Part shown: positions 3,123-54,777 of the stretch, piece after piece
Numbering within the stretch: the stretch's first letter is position 1
Layout: the number at the start of each line of letters is the position of its first letter
DNA from: Escherichia coli O127:H6 str. E2348/69
GTDB taxonomy: Bacteria; Pseudomonadota; Gammaproteobacteria; Enterobacterales; Enterobacteriaceae
Reading direction: 5' to 3' (one strand)
Assembly: GCF_000026545.1 (NCBI RefSeq)
Contig: NC_011601.1
Length of the DNA: 64,000 bases
Notes under the pieces: model-generated
Database searches by the model: none
What the model was told of the DNA's origin: nothing
What the model saw: only the letters and a program-made list of their open reading frames with translations
Position numbers and translations under genes: made by a program

Positions 3123-4535
3123 ATGAAAAAGACCAAAATTGTTTGCACCATCGGACCGAAAACCGAATCTGAAGAGATGTTAGCTAAAATGCTGGACGCT
3201 GGCATGAACGTTATGCGTCTGAACTTCTCTCATGGTGACTATGCAGAACACGGTCAGCGCATTCAGAATCTGCGCAACGTGATGAGCAAAACTGGTAAAA
3301 CCGCCGCTATCCTGCTTGATACCAAAGGTCCCGAAATCCGCACCATGAAACTGGAAGGCGGTAACGACGTTTCTCTGAAAGCGGGTCAGACCTTTACTTT
3401 CACTACTGATAAATCTGTTATCGGCAACAGCGAAATGGTTGCGGTAACGTATGAAGGTTTCACTACTGACCTGTCTGTTGGCAACACCGTACTGGTTGAC
3501 GACGGTCTGATCGGTATGGAAGTTACCGCCATTGAAGGTAACAAAGTTATCTGTAAAGTGCTGAACAACGGCGACCTGGGCGAAAACAAAGGTGTGAACC
3601 TGCCTGGCGTTTCCATTGCCCTGCCAGCACTGGCTGAAAAAGACAAACAGGACCTGATCTTTGGTTGCGAACAAGGCGTAGACTTTGTTGCTGCTTCCTT
3701 TATTCGTAAGCGTTCTGACGTTATCGAAATCCGTGAGCACCTGAAAGCGCACGGCGGCGAAAACATCCACATCATCTCCAAAATCGAAAACCAGGAAGGC
3801 CTCAACAACTTCGACGAAATCCTCGAAGCCTCTGACGGCATCATGGTTGCGCGTGGCGACCTGGGTGTAGAAATCCCGGTAGAAGAAGTTATCTTCGCCC
3901 AGAAGATGATGATCGAAAAATGTATCCGTGCACGTAAAGTCGTTATCACTGCGACCCAGATGCTGGATTCCATGATCAAAAACCCACGCCCGACTCGCGC
4001 AGAAGCCGGTGACGTTGCAAACGCCATCCTCGACGGTACTGACGCAGTGATGCTGTCTGGTGAATCCGCAAAAGGTAAATACCCGCTGGAAGCGGTTTCT
4101 ATCATGGCGACCATCTGCGAACGTACCGACCGCGTGATGAACAGCCGTCTCGAGTTCAACAATGACAACCGTAAACTGCGTATTACCGAAGCGGTATGCC
4201 GTGGTGCCGTTGAAACTGCTGAAAAACTGGATGCTCCACTGATCGTGGTTGCTACTCAGGGCGGTAAATCTGCTCGCGCAGTACGTAAATACTTCCCGGA
4301 TGCCACCATCCTGGCACTGACCACCAACGAAAAAACGGCTCACCAGTTAGTACTGAGCAAAGGTGTTGTGCCGCAGCTGGTTAAAGAGATCACTTCTACT
4401 GATGACTTCTACCGTCTGGGTAAAGAACTGGCTCTGCAGAGCGGTCTGGCACACAAAGGTGATGTCGTAGTTATGGTTTCTGGTGCACTGGTACCGAGCG
4501 GCACTACTAACACCGCATCTGTTCACGTCCTGTAA
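3123..4535 (+). CDS. pykF: Pyruvate kinase I
   Basis: 470-aa product starting [20 protein letters not shown]; ORF-track ORF begins earlier but the in-frame ATG at 3123 gives canonical length. Confidence 0.95.
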
Positions 4536-4833: not shown

Positions 4834-5082
<249 letters not shown>

Positions 5083-5100
5083 TAGTACCTGTGAAGTGAA

Positions 5101-5129
5101 AAATGGCGCACATTGTGCGCCATTTTTTT
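5101..5129. terminator. Bidirectional terminator between lpp and ldtE
   Basis: Hairpin aaatggcgcac-attg-tgcgccattt flanked by A-run and T-run. Confidence 0.7.
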
Positions 5130-5144
5130 GCCTGCTATTTACCG

Positions 5145-6149
5145 CTACTGCGTCGCGCGTAACATATTCCCTTGCTCTGGTTCCCCATTCTGCGCTGACT
5201 CTACTGAAGGCGCATTGCTGGCTGCGGGAGTTGCTCCACTGCTCACCGCAACCGGATACCCTGCCCGACGATACAACGCTTTATCGACTAACTTCTGATC
5301 TACAGCCTTATTGTCTTTAAATTGCGTAAAGCCTGCTGGCAGCGTGTACGGCATTGTCTGAACGTTCTGCTGTTCTTCTGCCGATAGTGGTCGATGTACT
5401 TCAACATAACGCATCCCGTTAGGTTCCACGGAATATTTCACCGGTTCGTTGATCACTTTCACCGGCGTTCCCGTCCGCACGCTGGAGAATAAAGCTTTAA
5501 TATCCGGTGCATTCATGCGAATACAGCCCGAACTGACGCGCAAACCGACGCTGTCCGGCGCACTGGTGCCATGAATGAGGTATTCGCCATTACCATGCGC
5601 GAGGCGCAGTGCGTAACGTCCTAGTGGGTTATTGGGCCCGGCAGGAACGACTGGTGGTAATTTAATGCCACGCTCCAGCGAACGTTGACGAATGCCCGCC
5701 GTAGGCGTCCAGGTTGGGTTAGGGATTTTCTGCCCCACACGCGTTTCCATCACCGGCGTTTCCAGCCCCTGCAAACCAATACCTATCGGATAAACCTGCA
5801 CGATATTTTCTCCCGGCGGATAATAATAAAGGCGCAGCTCTGCAAGGTTTACAATAATCCCCTGACGCGGCGCATCAGGTAATAATAGTTGTGAAGGAAT
5901 AGTTATCGTCGTACCGGGTTTTGGCAGCGGGGCGATAGTGTTATTGGCTTCAAGGATCAACATTGCCGCAGTATCAAAACGTCGGGCGATGGCCTGAAGG
6001 TTTTTATCCCCTTCTTGCACCGTATACGTTTGATTTTGCCCAACCAGTCGACTGCCGGTTGGTGGTAGCGGATAATCAACCGCCCAGGCAGCCTGGATGG
6101 CGCTAAAAGCGCCGATAAGCGTGAGTGTAAGCAAAGACGCGCGTTTCAT
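5145..6149 (-). CDS. ldtE: L,D-transpeptidase (LysM + YkuD domains)
   Basis: 334-aa ORF with signal peptide and catalytic SSGCIRM motif; synteny next to lpp/sufE. Confidence 0.85.
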
Positions 6150-12089: not shown

Positions 12090-12175
12090 AGAAATAAGAA
12101 AACCCTTAAGTCTGTGCGACACAGGCTTAAGGGTTTCTACCCCATCCGGCGCTTATCTCCGGCACTCACAGTGGC
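12090..12175 (-). ncRNA. Candidate small RNA (position expected for rydB): two stem-loops, the second followed by a U-rich tract on the minus strand
   Basis: Long perfect inverted repeat aacccttaag...cttaagggtt plus a second ccgg hairpin in the sufA–ydiH intergenic region; identity to RydB not confirmed. Confidence 0.35.
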
Positions 12176-12358
12176 TTAGCTCTTGAAGGGGCAATAAGGA
12201 TAATCTCATAAAGCTAACCCACTGTTTTAACACAAACTGCGATTTGTATTATTTTTGAACGTTATCAGTCGGGTAGATAGGCAGTATTAAGAAGGCCCTC
12301 GAACCTGGACGAAGATTAATCCAGGCCGATTTGGCGAACTCGCGACATTAAATCAGGA

Positions 12359-17796: not shown

Positions 17797-17901
17797 ACGG
17801 TTATAAATCAACATATTGATTTATAAGCATGGAAATCCCCTGAGTGAAACAACGAATTGCTGTGTGTAGTCTTTGCCCATCTCCCACGATGGGCTTTTTT
17901 T
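17797..17901 (+). ncRNA. rprA: RprA small regulatory RNA
   Basis: Sequence acggttataaatcaacatattgatttataagcatggaaatcccctgagtgaaacaacgaattgctgtgtgtagtctttgcccatctcccacgatgggcttttttt matches remembered RprA, ending in hairpin + T-run. Confidence 0.85.
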
Positions 17902-18039
17902 TAACATTTTTCCGCTTCGCTACCTCGCCCCTCACTCTTTCCAATAATGTTGCACAAGATACTGTGACTCTCTTCAAGCCGTCAGCAGGCTGATAATGTT
18001 ATTTATATTTTATTGTTTATTTCATGCAGCCATTACACG

Positions 18040-42766: not shown

Positions 42767-43183
42767 TCATTCGCTCCCCTCTTTTTCCTTATTTCGTTGA
42801 ACGCCAATTGCGACACACGTACTAAGCAAATCTTTACATTTCTCTACATCTTCAGACTTACGCAATTTGATGCTTTTTACAGACTGCGGGCTACTGTCCG
42901 TAGCACGATACATCGTTATTTCAATATCATTTCGGTCTAAGAGTCCCATAATGGCTTTTGCAACCTCCACACCCTTCTTCGCGAAATCAAAGAACAGAGC
43001 AAGTTTATATGGATTTTCGACGGAAAAAACTTCAATTTTGCTAAAACCAACATCGTGTAGAGAAAAATATTGCTCAACCTCATCTCGAAGTTCTGGATCG
43101 CATACAATGTCTATTCTCCAGTACTGACCTAAATGCAAATCGCTATTAACTGTTTTTTCCACAACATCCTCCTTACCCAGCAA
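42767..43183 (-). CDS. Hypothetical protein (138 aa), AT-rich, immediately downstream of and overlapping the int stop
   Basis: Complete ORF with acidic/lysine-rich composition; no family recognised. Confidence 0.45.
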   Translation of the reverse strand: MLGKEDVVEKTVNSDLHLGQYWRIDIVCDPELRDEVEQYFSLHDVGFSKIEVFSVENPYKLALFFDFAKKGVEVAKAIMGLLDRNDIEITMYRATDSSPQSVKSIKLRKSEDVEKCKDLLSTCVAIGVQRNKEKEGSE

Positions 43184-44147
43184 TAGGATTAAATCTCACC
43201 GCATCCTGCAAGTAATCCGGCGCAAGATGGGCATAAATCATCGTTGTCTGAATCTTTGCGTGCCCCAGAATTTTCTGGAGCGTCAGAATATTGCCGCCGT
43301 TCATCATGAAATGACTGGCGAAGGTGTGGCGCAGCGCATGAACAGCCTGGCCGTCAGGAACATCAGGTGCGACCGTTTTGATGACATCGCGAACCAATGG
43401 ATAATCCAGCGTCGGAAACACCAGTTTCCCGCCCCGTTTTTTGATCTTTTCAAACAGGCTTTCAGAAATAGGAACGGTACGGTTTTTGCTGTTCTTCGTT
43501 TTTGAAAAAGTGATTCGACAATGAAGAACACGGCGCTGCTCCAGTGCCGCTACCTCGCCCCATCGCGCCCCGGTCGACAGAAGGATTTCGACAGCCAGCC
43601 GTTCATCGGGATTTTCAGCCAGTGCATCCAGCAACTGAACACATTCAGACTTACTCAGATATCCCATTTCGCGCTCGTTAACCTTCATTCCTTTAAGGCC
43701 TTGAACGGGGTTATCGTTAAGAAAATGGCCGGATGAGATGAGTGCGGTAAACATCGCGCTTAACGCCCCAATCTCTCGATTAATGGTGCTGGGCTGTATC
43801 CCCTGCTCTATCCTGGACACACGTAGCTCGGTGAGCATCGTTGTATTAAGTTTATGCACACACGGGTCATCCATTGCCTCACTCAAGCGCAGCAATTTAA
43901 GGCGCGTGTTATGCCCTGACTTCATTAGCTGGCCGTGGTATTTCCACCACAAGTCAATAAGCACCGACAGCGGACGGCGATCAATGGAGTTTCCTTTCCA
44001 CTCATTGTTATGCTGTTGCGCCAGCACCCACCGCTCATATAAAACTGCATCCGATTTCGTTTTAAATTTTTTGCGAATGCGTTTGCCTTTACGCCCCTCA
44101 GGGCGCATGTCAAGAAGATACCCTCCCGGAATTGATTTTATGCTCAT
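43173..44147 (-). CDS. int: Tyrosine integrase (P2 Int-like)
   Basis: Strong similarity to P2 integrase (…EGRKGKRIRKKF…, …LSTGARWGE…, …HALRHTFASHFMMNGGNILTLQKILGH…MIYAH…); start taken at internal Met (MSIKSIPGGY) of the 374-aa ORF. Confidence 0.9.
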   Translation of the reverse strand: MSIKSIPGGYLLDMRPEGRKGKRIRKKFKTKSDAVLYERWVLAQQHNNEWKGNSIDRRPLSVLIDLWWKYHGQLMKSGHNTRLKLLRLSEAMDDPCVHKLNTTMLTELRVSRIEQGIQPSTINREIGALSAMFTALISSGHFLNDNPVQGLKGMKVNEREMGYLSKSECVQLLDALAENPDERLAVEILLSTGARWGEVAALEQRRVLHCRITFSKTKNSKNRTVPISESLFEKIKKRGGKLVFPTLDYPLVRDVIKTVAPDVPDGQAVHALRHTFASHFMMNGGNILTLQKILGHAKIQTTMIYAHLAPDYLQDAVRFNPIAG

Positions 44148-44196
44148 TCGTGAAACCCCAGCGTTACAAGACCACCATGCCCCCAGCGTTCCATGA

Positions 44197-44505
44197 TTAA
44201 CCGGGCTGTGTACCAGTCTTGCGGGATTTTTGAGAAGACGATGTGTTTTCTGGCCCATCAGGGGAGAGAGAGGGACTGATCTGCCCAGCAGCCTCATTTG
44301 TTTTTCCCGTCATAAGCCAATTCATGTACTTAAAAAAGCGAGGGTGATTAACAATCTTGATAAGCACTTCGCCCCCTATGTTTTCAATCCGCCCCGTTTC
44401 ATAACGACGCAAAGTGCCGATAGGCACATCAATCAGGCCGCAAAATTCTTCGCGCGTTAAATCCTCTGATTCACGAATCACTCTAATTTTTTCACCGATA
44501 AGCAT
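44197..44505 (-). CDS. C: Immunity repressor (P2 C-like, HTH)
   Basis: 102-aa ORF divergent from cox, HTH at N-terminus, resembles P2-family C repressors. Confidence 0.75.
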   Translation of the reverse strand: MLIGEKIRVIRESEDLTREEFCGLIDVPIGTLRRYETGRIENIGGEVLIKIVNHPRFFKYMNWLMTGKTNEAAGQISPSLSPDGPENTSSSQKSRKTGTQPG

Positions 44506-44515
44506 TGACAGTGTT

Positions 44516-44563
44516 CCTATAAGTACACTAAGCTTGCGCGCAAGGTGTACTTATAAGTACACC
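44516..44563. promoter_or_regulatory. Candidate operator in the C/cox divergent promoter region
   Basis: tataagtacac half-site followed 16 nt later by the 18-bp perfect palindrome gtgtacttataagtacac. Confidence 0.5.
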
Positions 44564-44601
44564 AAGTCACAAACAACCACAGATAGCGCAGGTTATCACA
44601 C

Positions 44602-44880
44602 ATGGCAAAAGTCCTGAACACACACGAACAGGCAGACTTTGAGCGTTTAGCAGCGTTCTATCCCTACCGCGATGAGCATGGGTTACCAGTACTTGAAGAA
44701 AGCCTGAAAGATTACGCAAAGCGTACCAACCAAGCTGTTAACACAGTGAAAAGACAGGCTGACAGAGGTTCAATTCCCATCAACCAGGATGAAAAGAACT
44801 CAAGACGCACAGTAAATCTCTTCGCTCTTTTCCTGAAAACAATCAGGAGCGCAGAAAAATACGTGCAGATGACAAAATAA
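44602..44880 (+). CDS. cox: Cox/Apl-like excision-directionality and early-promoter regulator (positional call)
   Basis: 92-aa first gene of rightward early operon; weak sequence support. Confidence 0.45.
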   Translation: MAKVLNTHEQADFERLAAFYPYRDEHGLPVLEESLKDYAKRTNQAVNTVKRQADRGSIPINQDEKNSRRTVNLFALFLKTIRSAEKYVQMTK

Positions 44881-44894
44881 CGAGGTGTCATTTT

Positions 44895-45233
44895 ATGCTG
44901 AAGCAACGCCGTAATTTTCGTACCGGAACAGAACGCCACGCTAACCGTTTCACTACTAGTGCATCACGCAGCAACATCCGCTACAGCCTGAGTGATACAC
45001 ACGCAACGCCGGATGGCTACCCAGTAAAACAAATCGGCGAGCACGCCTGGCTGATTGAGAAAGCTGGAATCGTGATCCACAAATGCCCACGCAATCCGTT
45101 TACCGGAAACCGCATTTTTGCATTGAGCTGTGGTGACAATCAGTTCGGGCAGGATTTCACATTATACGAAGCACTTCGCACGGTTGATCGTCTGCTTCGC
45201 GGGCAAAGTTTTATTAAACAGGCTGATTTATAA
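44895..45233 (+). CDS. Hypothetical early protein (112 aa)
   Basis: ORF with upstream GAGG RBS. Confidence 0.4.
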   Translation: MLKQRRNFRTGTERHANRFTTSASRSNIRYSLSDTHATPDGYPVKQIGEHAWLIEKAGIVIHKCPRNPFTGNRIFALSCGDNQFGQDFTLYEALRTVDRLLRGQSFIKQADL

Positions 45234-45243
45234 CAGGTGCTTT

Positions 45244-45531
45244 ATGACCAAAGACCATGCACAAGGTGTATTTATCCGTTTTATTGATTTTCGCGGTGAA
45301 CTGTTATTACGTGCATCCGCTATTGACGGAGTGACTCCGGCGGGTAAAAACGGAGCCGACGAAGCCACTTACGTTTATCTGAACGGCACGCGACTGCTTG
45401 CGGAACTTCCGTACCAGACCGTACGAGAAATCATTAGCGAAGCTGAAAAGGCACGCCAGGTTAATGGCGATGAACCCTATATCGAAATTATTTGTATGGA
45501 TTCAGAAGCTGAAATACAGAAAGCAGATTAA
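45244..45531 (+). CDS. Hypothetical early protein (95 aa)
   Basis: Internal-Met start of ORF 45130..45531. Confidence 0.4.
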   Translation: MTKDHAQGVFIRFIDFRGELLLRASAIDGVTPAGKNGADEATYVYLNGTRLLAELPYQTVREIISEAEKARQVNGDEPYIEIICMDSEAEIQKAD

Positions 45532-45539
45532 AGGGCGTT

Positions 45540-45785
45540 GTGATGGGCAAAGAATATAAAACTCTCATTAACAAAGCACTTGAGCGTTTTTATTTTCGCT
45601 TAAGTGCATCTGGCGCTCATGCTGAACGTGCGGCCCGTGACTCATTGACCAGAGCAATCCGAAGTCTGTATGACGTGGCTTTTTACGCTGATGATCTGGA
45701 TGCACTTAACGAACTTTCCGAGCTGATCTGTGCCGCAGAATGCGGGGAACATATTGAACCGTATAAGCTGGGAAATATCGCATGA
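45540..45785 (+). CDS. Hypothetical early protein (81 aa)
   Basis: Complete ORF, overlaps next gene by ATGA. Confidence 0.4.
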   Translation: MMGKEYKTLINKALERFYFRLSASGAHAERAARDSLTRAIRSLYDVAFYADDLDALNELSELICAAECGEHIEPYKLGNIA

Positions 45786-45895
45786 GTATATTTATCTCAT
45801 GGCTTGTTCTGATTATTTCGGTGGTCTGCGCCATTGGGATTATGCGAATTATTAATTCAGTAAAAAAGATTGAACGCTTTTTCACTGAAGAATAA
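45782..45895 (+). CDS. Small hydrophobic peptide (37 aa, single predicted TM helix)
   Basis: MSIFISWLVLIISVVCAIGIMRIINSVKKIERFFTEE; below ORF-track size cutoff. Confidence 0.35.
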   Translation: MSIFISWLVLIISVVCAIGIMRIINSVKKIERFFTEE

Positions 45896-45981
45896 CCGCG
45901 CAAATAAGCCCCCAGGTTAAATAAGAAAATGTGAAAACAATCCGCATTCGCGGAGGTATTCGCACACGCCAAGGAGGCGTA

Positions 45982-46185
45982 ATGGCAATTAAGCATTTTC
46001 CTGTCGTTCGTTTCACCTCCAGAGGACGTGAATACGAAGTTGACGAACGCCTGATTACCACAATCGACAAACACCGTTCAGAAAAGGATGCACATCACAT
46101 CTATCTCACTGACGGCACTTACTTCTGCGCCACCAACGTGGTGCAGGTGAATCTTATCAGACAGGTACAGGAGTCACGCAGATGA
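45982..46185 (+). CDS. Hypothetical early protein (67 aa)
   Basis: AGGAGG RBS 7 nt upstream of ATG. Confidence 0.45.
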   Translation: MAIKHFPVVRFTSRGREYEVDERLITTIDKHRSEKDAHHIYLTDGTYFCATNVVQVNLIRQVQESRR

Positions 46186-46427
46186 CCATTCTGGACTACA
46201 TCGCTGCCAATCCGGGTTGTAGCGGTGGAGAAATCGCCGCAGCACTGAATACACCAACCACAACCATTAATGCGGAGCTACGCCGTCTCTGGCGCAGCGG
46301 TTCAGTCATAAGAAAAGAGCGCAAAACAGGCGGTCGCTTTTCTTATCAGGTAAACCCGATGCCGTTTGGGTGTAGCAACCCACTAACCCAGATGTTCAAC
46401 CAGCTACTGAGGGAAATCAGAGCATGA
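46182..46427 (+). CDS. Small winged-helix-like DNA-binding protein (81 aa)
   Basis: Pattern GEIAAALNTPTTTINAELRRLWRSGSV resembles MarR/wHTH recognition helix; inference only. Confidence 0.4.
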   Translation: MTILDYIAANPGCSGGEIAAALNTPTTTINAELRRLWRSGSVIRKERKTGGRFSYQVNPMPFGCSNPLTQMFNQLLREIRA

Positions 46428-46568
46428 GCACCTCCAACTGCCGGAAACCACGTCGGGCTTCAGCAGCTCATCCGGCAGCAAAACAAACTCCATTAATTCC
46501 TGTTCCGGGCCTTTCCTGCACCTTGTGGCGGGAGGCCTTCGCACATCTGTAACAAGAGGATTGCCGCA

Positions 46569-46934
46569 ATGATTCTCGCCAACGACTTTCTTGAATACCT
46601 GCTCAACACAGAGCGTGATCTTGCCGTTCGCGTGCGTGAACGTTATGACATGTACCTGAAATCCCTGCCTGTACCGCAGCTCGCTGACGGAAAGATTGTT
46701 ATTGATGGTCGCTACATGATTGACAGCCACGAGGGAAATTACAGGCTTTACCGCATTGAAGGTGGCACCCCGTCCGTTATTGGCATTTACCAGCGCCCAT
46801 CCTCTGCAATCGTCGATGTGATTGCCGACAGCATCCGCATCACACATCGCCATGCCGACACAGAAGACACCGTGCTGGAAATTCAGCGGCTGGCTACAGT
46901 CTGCCGCGACACCCTGAATGGCATGACGAAGTAA
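46569..46934 (+). CDS. Hypothetical early protein (121 aa)
   Basis: Complete ORF directly upstream of gene A. Confidence 0.4.
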   Translation: MILANDFLEYLLNTERDLAVRVRERYDMYLKSLPVPQLADGKIVIDGRYMIDSHEGNYRLYRIEGGTPSVIGIYQRPSSAIVDVIADSIRITHRHADTEDTVLEIQRLATVCRDTLNGMTK

Positions 46935-46940
46935 ATCACT

Positions 46941-49763
46941 ATGACGGCAGAGTACATCAGGGACTGGCAACAACCGCGCCACGCAGTGGGGCGTGAAGGA
47001 ACGGGGATCCCCGCTCCTGAATCCGCGCTTTCCTCCTGGCTGGATGCCTACCGGGCAGAGAACGAGCACCGCCAGGAAATGGCTGATGCGGCGTTCTCCG
47101 CCACGCCGCTGGGCAACCTGATTAATAAAAGCCTGGACGCACAGGAAAAACAGGACAAAACCATCACACTGGCAGGAGACGCCAGAAAACAGGCACGCGG
47201 CGCGGTGGATGAAGCCATGGCCTCGCTGCGCCTGCTGCCGTCCTATCTGCGCGATCCGCTTATTCGCCACCTCTCCTTCCTGCGCAAAAAACAGGAAGCC
47301 GATCGTCAGAAAGGAAAAAACGCCAGGCAGGCAGAACGCTATGCGCGTGGGACCCTGCGCAAAATATTCGAACGTCTGGAGCGCACCGATCACCGCTGGC
47401 TGACACCGGGTTATCGCTCCCTTGCCGGACGCGAACGCCTGGACGATTTGCTTTACCTGCCGCAGCTCAACAAACACCAGATAAAGACGCTGGCAACCAT
47501 GACGGCGGCGATGTTCAGCAGCACCTTCGAAAAACTCTGCGATGGCTTTGGCGCGACCGATGGCGAGCTGACCATGGATGTAACCCTGAAGGCGTATCAG
47601 ATGCTGGCCCGCATGGCGTTACACCTGCACGCCATGCCTCCACATTATGACGCACTGACAACAGACAAAGACCGGAGGAACGAACCGGACACGGAGCTGC
47701 TGCCGGGCGCAATCCTTCGCCTGACCTGTGCGGAATGGTGGAAACGCAAACTGTGGCTGTTACGTTGCGAGTGGAGAGAAGAACAACTCCGCGCCGCCTG
47801 TCTGGTTTCCAGAAAAACATCGCCCTATCTGAGCCAGGACGCGTTAAGCGAGTTTCGCGCACAGCGCGAGAAAACACGCGATTTCCTGAAAAGTTTCATG
47901 CTGGAAAACGAAGACGGGTTCACGATTGATCTCGAGACAGTGTATTACGCGGGAGTAAGTAACCCGGTTCACCGTAAGGCAGAAATGATGGCCACCATGA
48001 AGGGACTGGAACTTCTGGCCGAAGCCCGTGGCGACAGAGCGGTGTTTCTGACTGTCACCTGCCCGTCAAAATACCACGCAACAACGGAGAACGGTCATCC
48101 GAACCCCAAATGGAACGGGGCCACCATGCGCGACTCCAGCGATTACCTGGTTAACACGTTTTTTGCGGCGGTCCGCAAAAAACTGAACCGCGACGGCCTG
48201 CGCTGGTATGGCATCCGCACGGTGGAGCCTCACCATGACGGCACCGTGCACTGGCATATGATGGTCTTTGCTCATCCGGAAGAAATCGACAGCATCGTGA
48301 CCATCACCCGCGATATTGCCATTCAGGAAGACCGCCACGAGCTGGGCAATGATATTACTCCGCGCTTTAAGGTGGAGTACGTCGACGGCACCAAAGGCAC
48401 GCCAACCAGCTACATCGCCACCTACATCGGAAAAAACCTGGACAGCCGCGCCGTGGATGGCATCGACCCGAAAACGGGCAAACCACGCGTTGACCACGAA
48501 ACCGGAAAATCAATGGCCGAGAGCGTGGAGCGCGCCATCGGTTGGGCACGCCTTCACCGGGTCCGCCAGTTCCAGTTCTTTGGCATCCCCTCCCGTCAGG
48601 TGTGGCGTGAACTCCGCCGCCTTGCCAGCCAGATGGCACGCAACCCGGAAGGCCCGCAACGGCTGAAGGATGACGCAATGGATGCGGTACTCGCTGCCGC
48701 TGATGCCGGATGTTTTGCCACCTACATAGAGAAACAGGGCGGTGTACTTGTTCCACGCAAAGACTACCTGATTCGCACCGCCTACGACCTCGCCGATGAG
48801 CTGAACGATTACGGCGAACAGAGTGTACAGATTTACGGGATCTGGTCACCACTCATCGGGGAATCCTCCCGTGTGTGCACGCACCCGGATAACTGGAAGC
48901 TGGTAAGACGTAAACCGGAACAGGAAGGCAGCGCCCACGAAAATGGTTTTGACCTTCAGGGCGGCCCTGCCGCCCCTTGGACTCGTGGCAATAACTGTCC
49001 CCGTGTACAGGAAACGGACAACAACGGGACAGAACAGCCGGAAGAACGGCCAGCACCGTGGCCGCAGCTCCCTGACGGCGTTGAAGTGAACGAATGGGTG
49101 CGCTCACTGAAACGGCACGAACGCCGGGCGCTGATGCGTTCGCTTCGTGACAAACAGGCAAAAAACAGCAGTGATGAAATGCAGAGCTGGACACAGAGCC
49201 GCAAACAGCAGCGGCCTTTGCCTGATAACCACGAATTACTCGCTAAAGAATGGCGGGAGTCTGCTGAATCTCTCGGCCTGCATATCGGTGAACAGCAGAT
49301 GCAGCACCTGTTACGGGGCGGCAGCCTGTACGTTGACGGCAGCATCATTGCACCGCAGGGATATGAAATTGTACGTAAACCGGATACCCGCCCGGACAGC
49401 CGAATCACGCAGCTCTGGCAACGCCTGAGCCGTAACCACGGCGTAAGCAGCACGGAGATCCGCCATAACCCGGTCGCCAGCTATCTGGAACAACTAGGGG
49501 CATCAGACCCTGAAGCCGCCGCACGCCTGGCATCCACACTTCAGCAAGACCAGAACACCATGAAAACACCCGTTACCGTACTTTCTGACATGCTGCGCGC
49601 CATCCGCGACGCAGAGCACGAACAGAGAATCAGTGAAACAACTGAACGCGCCCGCCGCAAAGCAGACCTGCTGCGGGGTGGCCTGACCAGTGGAAACAAA
49701 AAACAGACAAAAACGGGATTCACAAATCCCGTAAATGAGCAAAAAACGCGCCGCGATATATGA
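46941..49763 (+). CDS. A: Rolling-circle replication initiator (P2 gpA-like HUH endonuclease), 940 aa
   Basis: HUH motif (GTVHWHMMVF) and Y-x3-Y active-site pair (YIATYIGKN) as in P2 A. Confidence 0.85.
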   Translation: MTAEYIRDWQQPRHAVGREGTGIPAPESALSSWLDAYRAENEHRQEMADAAFSATPLGNLINKSLDAQEKQDKTITLAGDARKQARGAVDEAMASLRLLPSYLRDPLIRHLSFLRKKQEADRQKGKNARQAERYARGTLRKIFERLERTDHRWLTPGYRSLAGRERLDDLLYLPQLNKHQIKTLATMTAAMFSSTFEKLCDGFGATDGELTMDVTLKAYQMLARMALHLHAMPPHYDALTTDKDRRNEPDTELLPGAILRLTCAEWWKRKLWLLRCEWREEQLRAACLVSRKTSPYLSQDALSEFRAQREKTRDFLKSFMLENEDGFTIDLETVYYAGVSNPVHRKAEMMATMKGLELLAEARGDRAVFLTVTCPSKYHATTENGHPNPKWNGATMRDSSDYLVNTFFAAVRKKLNRDGLRWYGIRTVEPHHDGTVHWHMMVFAHPEEIDSIVTITRDIAIQEDRHELGNDITPRFKVEYVDGTKGTPTSYIATYIGKNLDSRAVDGIDPKTGKPRVDHETGKSMAESVERAIGWARLHRVRQFQFFGIPSRQVWRELRRLASQMARNPEGPQRLKDDAMDAVLAAADAGCFATYIEKQGGVLVPRKDYLIRTAYDLADELNDYGEQSVQIYGIWSPLIGESSRVCTHPDNWKLVRRKPEQEGSAHENGFDLQGGPAAPWTRGNNCPRVQETDNNGTEQPEERPAPWPQLPDGVEVNEWVRSLKRHERRALMRSLRDKQAKNSSDEMQSWTQSRKQQRPLPDNHELLAKEWRESAESLGLHIGEQQMQHLLRGGSLYVDGSIIAPQGYEIVRKPDTRPDSRITQLWQRLSRNHGVSSTEIRHNPVASYLEQLGASDPEAAARLASTLQQDQNTMKTPVTVLSDMLRAIRDAEHEQRISETTERARRKADLLRGGLTSGNKKQTKTGFTNPVNEQKTRRDI

Positions 49764-49839: not shown

Positions 49840-50799
49840 ATGAAAATTTGTATCGACGACGGCTCCACCAACATCAAGCTGGCATGGACTGAGAACGGCG
49901 AACACCGCAACGCCATCAGCCCGAACAGCTTCAAGTCGGAATGGTCTGCGCCGTTCGGTGGCACGCAGCCCGCGAACTACATGCTTGATGGCGTGCGCTA
50001 TGGTTTTGATCCGGTCAGCGATCGCTTTGTCCAGACGACCGACACGCAATACCAGTACAGCGATGTGAATGTCATTGCCATTCATCATGCGCTGGTCAAA
50101 TCAGGCATCACGCCACAGGAGGTGGATGTGGTTGTCACCCTGCCACTGAGCGAGTATTTCGACACAAACGCACAGCCGGACATGGCCAACATCAACCGCA
50201 AAAAAGCGAACGTTATGCGCCCGGTGGAGTACCAAAACGGCGAGGCATTCACTATCCGTAACGTGCGGGTTATGCCTGAATCCATTCCGGCTGGCTTTAA
50301 AGCACTGGCTGACATGAGTCCGTTTGAATCCCTGCTGATTGTGGATTTGGGCGGAACCACGCTGGATGTGGCAAAGGTTCAGGGGCAACTGGCAGGTATC
50401 AGCCAGGTGTTTTGCGATCCACACGTAGGCGTTTCTCTGATGGCCGATGCCGTGCTGTCGGTGATGGCCACCAACGGTATGCGCACCAGTCACCACATCG
50501 CCAATACCATTATCGAACATCGCCACGATGAAGCCTGGCTGCGCCAGCACATCCACAATGACGCGCATTACGCCAGCCTGATGGCAGTTATTCGTGAAAA
50601 GGAGGAAACACTGAAACAACGCGTGATCCGCGCGCTGGCGGTTTTTTCGGGTTACGGGCGGGTGATGGTTGTCGGTGGAGGGGCGGAGATTGTGGCACCC
50701 GCTATCCGCGAAGCCTGCGGAGTTAATGCGACTTTCATCGCGGACGGGGTGCCACAGTTTGCTCTGGTTAATGGGCTGTACGCAATGGACAAGGAGTAA
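49840..50799 (+). CDS. parM: ParM/StbA-like actin-type partition ATPase
   Basis: IDDGSTNIKL...ISPNSFK...YSDVNVIAIHHAL...RKKANV...VMPESIPAG...DLGGTTLD...VVGGGAE closely parallels plasmid R1 ParM. Confidence 0.85.
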   Translation: MKICIDDGSTNIKLAWTENGEHRNAISPNSFKSEWSAPFGGTQPANYMLDGVRYGFDPVSDRFVQTTDTQYQYSDVNVIAIHHALVKSGITPQEVDVVVTLPLSEYFDTNAQPDMANINRKKANVMRPVEYQNGEAFTIRNVRVMPESIPAGFKALADMSPFESLLIVDLGGTTLDVAKVQGQLAGISQVFCDPHVGVSLMADAVLSVMATNGMRTSHHIANTIIEHRHDEAWLRQHIHNDAHYASLMAVIREKEETLKQRVIRALAVFSGYGRVMVVGGGAEIVAPAIREACGVNATFIADGVPQFALVNGLYAMDKE

Positions 50800-50803
50800 A
50801 CCA

Positions 50804-51115
50804 ATGACGACTCCAACCAGACGGATAAGTTTCTATCTGAAGCCCACCGCCGTCAAGAACGAAGGAGAAGCATGCGCCTGGCTGGACAGCCTTACACCAG
50901 AAGCCCGCAAAAGCGGCCAACGCGTGGCTTTTCTGGCCGGGCTGGCACTTCTGAAAATGAATCCGGCAGAGGCTTACCGACTGGCTGCATGGGCTGATGA
51001 TGAGGTGTTATCAGTGACACAAACCAAGACAGAACGCCCCGCGTCACAGCCAGTATCAACCGCACAGATAACCAGTCAGATGGCCGGAAATATCCGGGCG
51101 TTATTTCCTGAATAA
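50804..51115 (+). CDS. parR: ParR-like centromere-binding adaptor
   Basis: RRISFYLKP...WLDSLTPEARKSGQRVAFLAGLAL...RALFPE parallels R1 ParR (RTIAFKLNP...TLDSIP..RS..RAALTAGLAL...SLFPKE); internal-Met start. Confidence 0.7.
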   Translation: MTTPTRRISFYLKPTAVKNEGEACAWLDSLTPEARKSGQRVAFLAGLALLKMNPAEAYRLAAWADDEVLSVTQTKTERPASQPVSTAQITSQMAGNIRALFPE

Positions 51116-51493: not shown

Positions 51494-52576
51494 ATGGTAA
51501 ACGTGAGGGAGGATGAACTTTTCAAACTCATCGAGCAAGGCATCAAAGGCAACGCAAATGCATTTACACTCCTATGCAGAAAGATGATTAACAACATCCG
51601 TAAAAATGATGAGGCTTTAGCTTCTAAGCTGGCTTCGTTAGTTGCTGAGGGAACAGTATTACGTGGGGCATCTAGTAAGGCTCCTATGCCTGTGGATGGA
51701 GACTCCAGACGAAACCTTTTGCAGGAAACATCTGTCAACGCAATTGTTGAAGAACCTGTATGGAATACGGATATCTCAAAGAAGCTGGAGTCAATTGTTA
51801 ACGAAAGAGAGAATGCGGTTTCTTTGTTCAAAGCTGGTCTTGAACCTGTGAAGACGGTTTTACTTTCTGGCCCGCCAGGCGTAGGCAAAACAATGTCCGC
51901 ACATTGGCTTGCTGCAAAGTTAAATTTACCTCTTTTAACATTGGATCTCTCATCTGTAATGAGTTCTCTTTTGGGAAAAACAGGTAATAATATTAAATCC
52001 GTTATGGATTATGCCAAAGAGAAACCATGTGTCCTTTTGCTTGATGAATTTGATGCTGTTGCAAAAAGACGTGATGATGACAGGGACGTTGGAGAATTAA
52101 AACGTTTAGTTACTGTACTCCTACAGACCATAGATGAGTGGCCAGCGACCTCGCTTCTTGTTGCTGCGACTAATCACCCTGATATCTTAGATCCGGCTGT
52201 TTGGCGTCGATTTGAGCACATCCTTAAATTTAATATGCCATCAGTAGAACTGATAGATAGATATTTAGTCAATCATAATATTGAACCTGAACTATCTAAA
52301 AAACTTGCACCATTATTAGATGGCATGTCCTTTGCCATCATTAACCGTATTTTGAATTTCTCCAAAAAGAATGAGGTACTTAGAAATATTCCATTTGAAA
52401 GCTCATTAATAGAAGCCGTAATTACGGAGAGGGTTTCATTGGATGAGTTTAGCGATAATGATCTCAATATAATTAAATATCATTTTGACGGTTTTTCAAA
52501 TAGGAAGATAGCTGAATTAGTTGGTGTTTCACATCCAACAATCGCGAATAAATTACAAAAGTGGGGGATTAAATGA
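51494..52576 (+). CDS. Classic-clade AAA+ ATPase with C-terminal LuxR/GerE-like HTH (360 aa); candidate defence component
   Basis: Walker A GPPGVGKT (aa 126-133), Walker B LLLDEFD (aa 181-187), sensor-1 ATN, second-region-of-homology-like DILDPAVWRRFEH; C-terminal NRKIAELVGVSHPTIANKLQKWGI HTH. Confidence 0.85.
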   Translation: MVNVREDELFKLIEQGIKGNANAFTLLCRKMINNIRKNDEALASKLASLVAEGTVLRGASSKAPMPVDGDSRRNLLQETSVNAIVEEPVWNTDISKKLESIVNERENAVSLFKAGLEPVKTVLLSGPPGVGKTMSAHWLAAKLNLPLLTLDLSSVMSSLLGKTGNNIKSVMDYAKEKPCVLLLDEFDAVAKRRDDDRDVGELKRLVTVLLQTIDEWPATSLLVAATNHPDILDPAVWRRFEHILKFNMPSVELIDRYLVNHNIEPELSKKLAPLLDGMSFAIINRILNFSKKNEVLRNIPFESSLIEAVITERVSLDEFSDNDLNIIKYHFDGFSNRKIAELVGVSHPTIANKLQKWGIK

Positions 52577-54777
52577 TGGAAAGGAACTTACTTTTAGGTA
52601 ACGGTCATGTTCTGACAAAAAAGGAACCTTTGCCTAAAGGAAGGGATGGTAAGCGCTATCCCTATACTCTTGAAGAAGTAAGGGAGCATTTAAACCCAGA
52701 GATTGATACTTTACTCTCACGCTTTCGCAGTTTGGATGATGCGGCTAAGCCAAGGGGGGAGAGTGTATTCAATTTAACTTTACACCCAGCGTTTTTGGGT
52801 AAAAGCTACTTTCCGGAAGGATTGCTTAGAGCGACAGGTTTACGGGATGTCGGCAGCCGTCAGGTAATCATTCGCCCACGGAAAGCGGCACGTCAGTGCG
52901 ATCAGAATAAGGACTTAGTAACGGCGCAACTGTTTGTTAGCGGTGATGATGATGCCGTTATAAGATTTAAGGAAATTTTAAATTCCCCTACAGCTCCGAA
53001 GGGCGTACAAAAGGATTTGATCGAAATTGAAAGTGTTAGCTTTTTTGAAGGAAAAGAGAGAGCACGCAATTTTGAGCATGCGAAAAGTGATTTGATAAAA
53101 TTTGAAGTGGTTCTTCATGCTGGGGTTGAAGACGATGATATCGTTAAAGCCTATATTAGCTATGCGGCACAATATGATGTCTCTGTTGATTACAAAAGTA
53201 GAATCCAAGTTGGTGGGCTGACTTTCATCGTTGCACACGCGCGACCTGAAGATATGAAAAAAACACTCGATTTTTCATTAATCCGCGTTGTGCGGCCGAT
53301 GCCGTCTCTCAGGTGTACTCAGCCGAACATTGTCAGAAAGTTATCTAATATAGTTACACCGGAGCTCCCTAATTCTAAAGCTGTTCTTGAATCCGAACGT
53401 ATTGCCATTTTTGATGGTGGCTTGGGGACAGCTGACTTGAGTAATTGGGTTACGGAATACGTGTATCCAGACACCAAAGAAACAAGCGGATTATTATTGC
53501 AGCACGGTAATGAAGTGACATCCACTTTCTTATTCGGACGTGTCGAGGAAAATGCACCTTCTTTTAAAAGACCGTTTATGAATGTAGATCATTATAGAGT
53601 TCTTTCACCGACATCAGGTGACAATGGCAATTGGGATTTATTTGATGTCCTTAAGAAAATACAGTCCGTTCTTGATAGTGGTGACTATAAGTTCGCTAAT
53701 CTAAGTATTGGTCCTCATCTTCCAATTGGTGATGATGAGGTTCATGTATGGACTGCTGTTTTAGACCAAATCTGTGCTAAGCATGGGATATTACTTACTG
53801 TTGCTGTTGGGAATGATGGCAATGAGGACGGTGATGCAGCGAGAATACAACCTCCTTCCGATATGGTAAACGCGCTAGCGATTGGTGCTGCTGATCGTAG
53901 CGGTGAAAAATGGGGGCGGGCACCATATAGCTGTATTGGGCCAGGCAGAAGCCCCGGATTCGTTAAACCTGATGGTGTTATTTTTGGTGGAAGCGACGAC
54001 GAGCCTTTTTACACTTACAACCCTCTGCTTGGTTCTATAGTTGGAGTTCAAGGAACCAGTTATGCCTCTCCATTAGCATTGAGAACGGCCGCTGGAGTTG
54101 CGGCTCTATCAGGAACTCCATTGAACACCATTGCATTGAAAGCGTTGCTTGTTCATCATGCTGAAACATCAAGAAAATATTCGCGTGAACATATCGGTTG
54201 GGGACGGTTTAGTGAGGATCCTAACGTTTTAATCGATTGTCCAAATGATACTGCTACAGTAATTTACTATGGTTCATTAGCAAAAAATAAATATTTAAGG
54301 GCACCGATCCCATTCCCTGATGTTCCCTTTGACGAAGCATTTGAGCTTACCGCTACTTTATGCATTCAAACCCCAGTAGATCCTGAACATTCAGTAAACT
54401 ATACAAGGGCCGGTATGCAGGTAACTTTCCGCCCAAGATTCGGCCTTGACGATACCGATACAGATGATTTCTTTGGTCAAAAAAGCCAGTATAAGACTGA
54501 AAGGGAGTGTAGGAGTGAAGGTCATAAGTGGGAAACTTGTTTGCACAGAAGCAAAAAGTTCAGTGCTGATACATTATTAAGCGATCCAGTTTTTGATATA
54601 CGGTATCATGCCCGAGATTCTTCGCGCCATGTTAAGGGAGTTTCAGCCCCTGATATGCAATATGCGATGGTAATAAGCGTAAGGGTAAAAGACTTTGATT
54701 TATATAATGTTATTCGCCAGCGATATACAATTCTGAATCCTATTCAACTGCGCACACAAATTTCTCTCGACACGTAA
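52573..54777 (+). CDS. Subtilisin-like (S8) serine peptidase, 734 aa, no signal peptide; candidate defence effector
   Basis: Catalytic order D-H-N-S: IAIFDGG (D281), HGNEVTS (H311), VAVGNDG (N414), GTSYASPLA (S496); ~270-aa N-terminal and ~230-aa C-terminal regions unassigned; start overlaps ATPase stop (ATGA). Confidence 0.85.
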   Translation: MMERNLLLGNGHVLTKKEPLPKGRDGKRYPYTLEEVREHLNPEIDTLLSRFRSLDDAAKPRGESVFNLTLHPAFLGKSYFPEGLLRATGLRDVGSRQVIIRPRKAARQCDQNKDLVTAQLFVSGDDDAVIRFKEILNSPTAPKGVQKDLIEIESVSFFEGKERARNFEHAKSDLIKFEVVLHAGVEDDDIVKAYISYAAQYDVSVDYKSRIQVGGLTFIVAHARPEDMKKTLDFSLIRVVRPMPSLRCTQPNIVRKLSNIVTPELPNSKAVLESERIAIFDGGLGTADLSNWVTEYVYPDTKETSGLLLQHGNEVTSTFLFGRVEENAPSFKRPFMNVDHYRVLSPTSGDNGNWDLFDVLKKIQSVLDSGDYKFANLSIGPHLPIGDDEVHVWTAVLDQICAKHGILLTVAVGNDGNEDGDAARIQPPSDMVNALAIGAADRSGEKWGRAPYSCIGPGRSPGFVKPDGVIFGGSDDEPFYTYNPLLGSIVGVQGTSYASPLALRTAAGVAALSGTPLNTIALKALLVHHAETSRKYSREHIGWGRFSEDPNVLIDCPNDTATVIYYGSLAKNKYLRAPIPFPDVPFDEAFELTATLCIQTPVDPEHSVNYTRAGMQVTFRPRFGLDDTDTDDFFGQKSQYKTERECRSEGHKWETCLHRSKKFSADTLLSDPVFDIRYHARDSSRHVKGVSAPDMQYAMVISVRVKDFDLYNVIRQRYTILNPIQLRTQISLDT

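Follow-up and report, generated by a model that had tools for sequence, protein, structure and literature searches.

Positions 44895–46934 of the window (the whole 64,000-nucleotide stretch analysed here, from the chromosome of enteropathogenic Escherichia coli (EPEC) E2348/69, O127:H6) lie in a prophage of the P2 family, between a Cox-like gene and the replication gene A, and hold eight open reading frames (ORFs) on the plus strand, called o1 to o8 below. A preliminary description had seen here a tightly packed cluster of small ORFs in the early region of a temperate phage, several of them ATGA-coupled, with a winged-helix-like product at 46182–46427 and a hydrophobic peptide of 37 amino acids (aa) at 45782–45895. 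All of these features were borne out, and the interval consists of seven genuine protein-coding genes plus one deletion scar; this is the correct count because o7 is a junction ORF made by the deletion. The RefSeq annotation of E2348/69, made by the Prokaryotic Genome Annotation Pipeline (PGAP), lists the same seven genes. The features of the interval, with isoelectric points (pI) and match scores, are the following.

44895–45233, plus strand: o1, DUF4761 protein of 112 aa, pI 10 (PF15958, 228.5 bits over the full length, cut-off 27)
45244–45531, plus strand: o2, phrog_3800 protein of 95 aa, acidic, pI 4.6 (phrog_3800, E 2e-61 over the full length)
45543–45785, plus strand: o3, DUF4754 protein of 80 aa, acidic, pI 5.3 (PF15946, 181.7 bits over the full length, cut-off 27)
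45782–45895, plus strand: o4, single-pass membrane peptide of 37 aa, annotated by PGAP, with an ATGA overlap with o3
45896–45981: empty cargo slot between o4 and o5, 86 nucleotides (nt)
45982–46185, plus strand: o5, all-beta phrog_3459 protein of 67 aa (phrog_3459, E 1e-45 over the full length)
46182–46427, plus strand: o6, predicted stand-alone winged-helix DNA-binding protein of 81 aa, pI 10, ATGA-coupled to o5 (phrog_1687, E 3e-31)
46424–46568, plus strand: deletion scar with the 42-aa o7 (46424–46552) and a PGAP 'ash family' pseudogene fragment (46453–46572)
46569–46934, plus strand: o8, protein of 121 aa encoded directly upstream of A (phrog_3237, E 7e-55 over the full length)

The genes follow one another closely. 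Spacers of 14, 10, and 11 nt separate cox from o1, o1 from o2, and o2 from o3, respectively, and o8 ends 6 nt before A; o3 and o4, o5 and o6, and o6 and o7 overlap by 4 nt each, in all three cases through ATGA, a motif that also stands at the start of o8. The wider intervals are the 86 nt between o4 and o5 and the 141 nt between o6 and o8, the latter containing o7. The ORF-listing program extended o2 to a GTG at 45130 and o5 to a GTG at 45931; a strong Shine-Dalgarno sequence, AAGGAGG, precedes the ATG of o5 at 45982. Within the cluster we found one promoter-like site, compared to 3.4 expected by chance, and no convincing plus-strand terminator. An Rfam search of the interval identified no RNA gene, its match to SNORA22 (E 0.16) being a chance one.

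We compared alleles over 83 related loci, 80 of which were gathered from IMG/VR with o3 as bait and ranked by o3 identity. The ratio of nonsynonymous to synonymous polymorphism (pN/pS) was 0.22 for o1, 0.31–0.34 for o2, 0.14 for o5, 0.20–0.21 for o6, and 0.21 for o8, and it was 0.18 for the Cox-like gene. For o4 the ratio was 0.25 in frame and rose to 0.93 and 1.69 when either wrong frame was read, and this tiny ORF is therefore translated. The 39 DNA alleles of o3 (pS 0.107) all encoded one identical protein, an extreme conservation that owes something to ascertainment, o3 identity having served to rank the loci. Purifying selection thus acts on all seven genes, o7 excepted. The possibility that the cluster consists of chance reading frames or decayed pseudogenes of a defective prophage, to which the junction nature of o7 and the loss of ~780 bp including an isrK/C4-derepression module lend some color, is refuted for seven of the eight ORFs by this selection analysis and is highly improbable for the cluster as a whole: there are also full-length matches to Pfam and PHROG families, PGAP makes identical gene calls, and the same genes are carried by the inducible, plaque-forming phages P88 and phiSM. 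In a phmmer search with o1, o2, o3, o5, and o8 against 1.84 billion representative proteins we obtained 85 matches, mostly fragments of the same proteins; the families are therefore very narrow.

The scar was resolved by alignment with P88_4B11, a P88-like phage of the genus Xuanwuvirus, relative to which ~780 bp are missing just after the stop codon of o6. o7 opens with six codons from the beginning of an Ea22-like gene and continues as the out-of-frame tail of a gene for a 76-aa derepression protein (PF25738); o7 is a junction ORF and not a gene. This junction is shared by 8 of the 83 loci and by those complete genomes that match best. What was lost, at 3306–3923 of P88_4B11 and 5028–5512 of locus L002, comprises the Ea22-like gene, the isrK and C4 genes, and most of the derepression gene. 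In P88 and P88_4B11 the missing DNA scores 64 bits for isrK and 80–83 bits for the C4 antisense RNA in Rfam, and an Rfam search of the window found neither RNA. The relatives' combination of C4, isrK, and a small derepression protein resembles immI of P1 and P7 (c4 antisense RNA, icd, and ant) and Salmonella IsrK, and the lost segment looks like a second immunity and derepression module of P88-like phages, of P1 immI or P4 type. Its loss may affect the inducibility of the E2348/69 prophage; in the window, from which the module is absent, the likeness bears on the origin of o7 only.

The same segment accounts for the 'ash' label. At 3351–3633 of P88_4B11, a Phage_ASH match (residues 16–109 of a 205-aa ORF, 26.5 bits) lies exactly on the RNA genes (isrK at 3363–3437, C4 at 3473–3560) and, in a different frame, overlaps the gene for the 76-aa derepression protein. 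What P88_4B11 carries under the label 'Ash protein family' is thus probably a translation of RNA genes, and the pseudogene that PGAP calls 'ash family protein' in the window is what remains of this same ORF.

The seven genes form a backbone interrupted by variable slots. P88 (NC_026014; gp04–gp09 and gp15) and P88_4B11 (gp44–gp49 and gp52) have the same genes in the same order at 76–100% protein identity, annotated as DUF4761, hypothetical, DUF4754, membrane protein, hypothetical, winged helix, and hypothetical. Both phages also have cargo downstream of the winged-helix gene and ahead of the last small gene; all of it is deleted in the window, and it comprises an Ea22-like gene, an SPFH lipoprotein gene and others, isrK/C4, and the derepression gene. 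Most of the 83 loci keep the order o1-o2-o3-o4-[slot]-o5-o6-[slot]-o8-A, and some lack o6 or o8. Three intervals vary in length: 389–2217 nt between C/cox and o1 (44506–44894 in the window), 88–546 nt between o4 and o5, and 516–2408 nt between o6 and A. The o4–o5 gap measures 88–100 nt in 42 loci, 355 nt in 6, and 528–546 nt in 34, and the longer gaps carry an ORF of 105 aa or ~137 aa. Besides these ORFs, the slots hold alternative cox types, Ea22-like genes, the SPFH lipoprotein gene, and the isrK/C4-derepression module. In the window the o4–o5 and o6–A slots are at their shortest and without a cargo gene, and the 86-nt o4–o5 gap has no plus-strand terminator and is only mildly stable when folded (z −2.2), and a structured RNA or terminator there was rejected. 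The opening codons of GTG-extended o5 (MKTIRIRGG...) are also those of the cassette gene in filled o4–o5 slots, which suggests a fixed recombination junction.

A divergent E. coli prophage lineage, in which A is 52% identical, keeps o1 (50%), o3 (42%), o4 (65%), o5 (40%), and o8 (22%). It carries genes for an Rv2179c-like exonuclease, a Dam-type methylase, and a DUF4406 protein, and in some members for a ParE-like protein.

The one connection of a cluster gene to phages P2 and 186 involves o8. We compared the seven families with 17 early-region proteins of P2 and 186 by hhalign, and in these 119 comparisons the sole signals came from o8, against P2 Orf81 (E 6.7e-6), P2 Orf83 (E 4.6e-5), and 186 Orf83 (E 6.7e-4). 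Alignment of the o8 family gave E 6.5e-6 for P2 Orf81 and E 1.4e-5 (probability 80%) for Orf83, confirming a weak BLAST match between o8 and P2 Orf81 in a 21-protein database. By itself o8 falls below the gathering score of Pfam DUF5405 (PF17399; 13.9 compared to 21.6 bits), and 4 of 7 o8-family members match this family, the best at E 1.5e-6. Modelled alone, o8 has a mean predicted local distance difference test score (pLDDT) of 87.5 and consists of two helices, a four-strand meandering sheet, and two further helices. It shares with P2 Orf81 and with Orf83 of P2 and 186 the four-strand sheet and two helices, as well as the position directly upstream of A, and it differs from them in length, 121 aa compared to 91–100 aa, because ~40 extra N-terminal residues form two helices. 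Thus, o8 is a divergent relative of P2 Orf81/Orf83 and 186 Orf83 (DUF5405) that is filed outside Pfam membership. Among the predicted viral structures of BFVD, the model matched a Salmonella phage protein of the DUF5405 family (E 1.8e-3, TM-score 0.68) and several uncharacterised ~90-aa proteins of unrelated phages; the result confirms the tie to DUF5405 and is a weak lead to a sheet-plus-helix DNA-binding fold.

The o8-family profile hits P2 Orf81 (residues 36–96; the gene lies at 3247–3549 of the P2 record) and Orf83 (3770–4045) over the same C-terminal strand-helix-helix segment, and the two P2 proteins may thus be distant paralogues of one superfamily. A protein called 'ORF83' in work on anti-defence (bioRxiv 10.1101/2025.06.06.658234) coincides in name only; it is DprA/LOG-like, acts against Avs, and is unrelated.

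The o8 gene always stands directly before A. Among the loci it is co-inherited with the type of A; those with a different type of A lack o8 or have another gene instead. Both P2 and 186 counterparts are uncharacterised, and 186 orf83 is annotated as not essential. We consider that o8 probably serves A, whether as a binder of DNA or of the A protein or by bringing ribosomes to the start of A, and this is the best supported of the roles proposed here.

Next in support comes DNA binding by o6 and perhaps o5. For o6 the winged helix is indicated by matches above the cut-offs to MarR_2 (28.7 bits, cut-off 27) and HTH_24 (27.6 bits, cut-off 21.9). Its closest solved proteins are the single-domain winged helices of FeoC/YhgG, which are of the same size (E 0.012). 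Secondary structure for the cluster came from an AlphaFold2 model of the seven proteins as one linker-joined chain, whose mean pLDDT of 53.6 leaves the secondary structure usable; in it, o6 runs helix-helix-helix-strand-strand and ends in a C-terminal helix, at low pLDDT. Canonical MarR regulators are ~140–150 aa long and have dimerisation helices at both the N and C termini. At 81 aa, with a match that spans residues 2–52 only, o6 does not have this full architecture; it lacks the dimerisation helices and the ligand pocket and belongs to a phage-specific family (phrog_1687). It would be a small winged-helix DNA-binding regulator. The o5 model has five strands (pLDDT 70–85), and this all-beta protein, coupled to o6, may be a second nucleic-acid binder. 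Profile searches found relatives of o5, all labelled hypothetical, in Escherichia and Shigella only; the single exception was a 451-bp contig under the name Enterococcus faecalis. An Sso7d-like assignment for o5 was dropped to the rank of a lead (profile E 0.046 against the PDB, with insignificant SH3 and Tudor matches from the concatenated model).

Third in support is a joint role of o3 and o4. In the model o3 is a three-helix bundle (pLDDT 67–86). It is 100% identical in Citrobacter phage phiSM and occurs in 14 of 50,697 phage records, all P88-like, and is thus a signature gene of these phages. A PDB match of o3 to a designed helical repeat protein reflects helical composition, and a BLAST match to P2 B (E 0.007 in the same 21-protein database) was not confirmed by hhalign (E 0.38). 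The o4 peptide is hydrophobic, with a grand average of hydropathy (GRAVY) of 1.23, and is modelled as one long helix; neither it nor o7 matches a family in Pfam or PHROG. In the lineage whose A is 52% identical, o4 is a 41-aa peptide that still overlaps the DUF4754 gene, and the lineage most remote from the window has in its place an unrelated protein of 77 aa that spans the membrane twice and whose gene likewise overlaps the DUF4754 gene. In every lineage a small membrane protein is encoded just downstream of DUF4754 and in overlap with it, and the transmembrane sequence of the o4 type is strikingly conserved. We take this recurring overlap as evidence that o3 and o4 work together. The coupled pair would act at the inner membrane, with o3 as a soluble partner or moderator of o4, and we favor an effect on the host envelope or on division, in the manner of 186 Fil or lambda Kil.

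The roles of o1 and o2 are the least supported of those we ranked. The model of o1 has a basic, disordered N-terminal tail (about residues 1–36) followed by five strands and a helix (pLDDT 55–68), and that of o2 has five strands, a helix, and a strand (pLDDT 67–83); a search of the PDB yielded no relative of o2. Through its basic tail o1 would bind nucleic acid, and the acidic o2 would bind a host protein. Two paralogies within the cluster were rejected by hhalign: that of o2 and o5, suggested by the pattern as seen by eye (E 0.024–0.12, probability at most 2%), and that of o1 and o8 (E 0.38).

The interpretation of the cluster depends on its surroundings. The prophage adjoins btuCED, and the 2.5 kb around the cluster are 100% identical to the E2348/69 chromosome. 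P88-like phages (genus Xuanwuvirus, Peduoviridae, P2 family) match at 89–97% DNA identity over 50–82% of the query, depending on the record; examples are P88_4B11, P88, and Citrobacter phage phiSM. The following features flank the interval.

43173–44297, minus strand: integrase gene
44197–44505, minus strand: gene for an HTH_3 repressor (C), divergent from cox
44505–44566, plus strand: putative early promoter Pe, with a perfect −35 box, TTGACA, at 44505–44510
44511–44532 and 44545–44566: two copies of a putative palindromic operator, GTGTaCtTATAAGTACAC, found by repeat search
44602–44880, plus strand: gene for a Cox-like excisionase/repressor of 92 aa, first in the early operon (phrog_11533, E 1e-54; phrog_575, E 1e-7)
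46941–49763, plus strand: gene A, encoding a rolling-circle replication endonuclease of 940 aa, the right boundary of the cluster (Phage_GPA, PF05840, E 8.8e-131)

The order int-C-cox-...-A and the divergent repressor/cox switch with a repeated operator between its genes are the layout of the P2 family, and the product of gene A is 35% identical to 186 A and 30% to P2 A. The C and cox genes of P88 are of another allele type than those of the window (C 36–43% identical, cox without a match). By analogy with the annotated P2 region, which has the same layout, we infer that 44505–44566 would serve as promoter and operator.

We propose, with a probability of roughly 0.6, that the cluster is a set of non-essential accessory genes in the repressor-controlled early lytic operon of a P88-like prophage. 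Rightward transcription from Pe at ~44505 would take in cox, the cluster genes, and A as a single unit, and the products of the cluster would appear only once the C repressor is lost, on infection or induction; lying behind an operator-controlled promoter, the genes should thus be silent in the lysogen. A single operon is supported by the placement of all genes on one strand with gaps of at most 14 nt or overlaps of 4 nt, apart from the two cargo slots, and by the promoter and terminator counts given above; the short gaps and ATGA overlaps suggest translational coupling. In the record of phage 186, orf80–84 are annotated as 'not essential' and translation to the end of the upstream ORF as needed for A; by comparison, the cluster genes are probably dispensable helpers and not core replication factors.

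A different assignment would make the cluster a replication accessory set that replaces P2 B and supplies helicase-loading or origin functions for A. Between cox and A the cluster takes the place that orf78-B-orf80-83 has in P2, one of its products (o8) has relatives in P2 Orf81/Orf83, and two or three members are plausible DNA binders. The preliminary description had noted that no ORF has the size of B, and this absence holds for sequence as well as size: the largest ORF encodes 121 aa compared to 166 aa for B, the best BLAST match reached 23.5 bits in the 21-protein database, and hhalign gave E of at least 0.16. Nor did hhalign reveal likeness of the cluster proteins to P2 Orf78, Orf80, or Orf82 or to 186 CII. 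Only o8 has counterparts in P2 and 186, so that the ORFs are not all known replication accessory proteins, the outcome that would have refuted that description; moreover, the middle-region genes of 186 are annotated as not essential, o2 and o6 are dispensable in the sister lineage, and a membrane peptide is unlikely to be a replication factor. Phage 186 itself replicates with host DnaC and is not known to use a B-like protein. We therefore consider a replication set improbable.

The preliminary description had also raised host take-over and superinfection exclusion as functions often encoded in such regions. A take-over role of the cluster genes is possible, and the best documented precedent for o1–o4 is 186 fil and dhr, whose products of 66–75 aa block cell division and host replication, respectively, and which in the early lytic operon come directly behind the genes of the switch. 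The likeness is positional only; we found no sequence or profile similarity to Fil or Dhr (best hhalign E 0.045, probability 1.2%). Exclusion fared worse. Some exclusion systems do employ products such as o4, a small membrane peptide, and P2-family prophages are known carriers of defence cargo. PADLOC-DB 2.0 produced no defence-model match for the cluster ORFs, with generic winged-helix noise for o6 at E 9e-4 or worse, and in the same prophage it detected, as a positive control, IetA (AAA ATPase, E 4e-89) and IetS (subtilase, E 7e-41) at 51494–54777 on the plus strand. The idea that the cluster genes are morons expressed in the lysogen for superinfection exclusion or defence is unlikely because the recognisable defence cargo is this IetA/IetS pair elsewhere in the prophage; the genes also lie downstream of an operator-controlled promoter, have neither an excess of promoters nor plus-strand terminators within the cluster, and form a conserved backbone rather than variable cargo. 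We rate this explanation still lower than a replication set. As a side observation, IetA and IetS lie between partition genes and the portal and terminase genes, a position that corresponds to the old/tin region of P2.

The main rival to the proposal of accessory early genes is counter-defence, in which the small early proteins, especially o2, o3, and o5, would inhibit host anti-phage systems and o6 would act as an Aca-like repressor. The proteins are small, early, acidic (pI 4.6 and 5.3), and taxonomically very narrow, a small winged-helix gene follows small uncharacterised genes, and cargo slots adjoin. A counter-defence role of the small acidic proteins nevertheless fits poorly with their invariance: the genes belong to the invariant backbone and are not cargo that is present in some loci and absent from others, o3 is identical in E. 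coli and Citrobacter phages, unlike fast-evolving anti-defence genes, and the genes sit inside the main early operon rather than in a separate acr-aca unit. Although it is the strongest of the competing explanations, we hold it to be unlikely.

Several observations weigh against our own proposal or soften it. The divergent lineage lacks o2 and o6, which are therefore not needed by the rest, and in that lineage o5 is coupled to a different upstream gene, which weakens the pairing of o5 with o6. The ascertainment noted above tempers the argument from o3 conservation. Sequence and profile searches of the PDB found no solved-structure relative for five families (o1, o2, o3, o5, and o8), and a Foldseek search of the PDB with the concatenated seven-protein model gave a best E of 0.31, which is not significant. 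That the genes are transcribed from Pe, stay silent in the lysogen, and are translationally coupled is deduced from sequence alone, and in the literature, including that on DUF4761, DUF4754, P88, and Xuanwuvirus, we found no functional data on any of the seven genes.

Other features of the window lie outside the cluster. Upstream of the prophage, the host small RNA genes rydB (12132–12192) and RprA (17797–17904) confirm the chromosomal context. A 131-aa ORF of low G+C (~41%) on the minus strand (42767–43162), which separates the integrase gene from btuC at the end of the prophage, is a member of phrog_14142 with no Pfam match and is a possible lysogenic-conversion gene. Directly after A, at 49840–51115, lie genes for an actin-like segregation ATPase, ParM (StbA_N, E 3e-82), and for a partition protein of 103 aa (phrog_2515); such a plasmid-type partition system is unusual in an integrating phage of the P2 family.

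Two bolder possibilities extend from these results, and we regard it as doubtful that either holds. The o3–o4 pair might be a two-part early module that has so far escaped recognition, is confined to P88-like phages, and has a conserved target at the host inner membrane, with the division machinery, the envelope machinery, and membrane-bound defence as candidates; if true, this would explain why the transmembrane sequence (65%) and the pairing are kept where the replication protein has drifted to 52%. The Orf81/Orf83/DUF5405 superfamily, of which o8 is a member, might be a DNA-binding accessory of A, similar to AP2 or integrase-arm domains, throughout the P2 family.

The genes themselves are already catalogued, under two Pfam DUFs, in PHROGs, and in RefSeq, in a known phage genus, and they give no sign of a new kind of system. 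Our analysis separates the real genes from a scar, ties o8 to P2 Orf81/Orf83, and locates the cargo slots and the true defence cargo. Because this region was matched in 1405 of 5426 complete E. coli genomes, 909 of which hold most of it, the seven proteins are among the commonest uncharacterised prophage gene products in E. coli pathogens, and the pair of DUF4754 protein and membrane peptide and the DUF5405-like o8 are the two most tractable targets for experiment.

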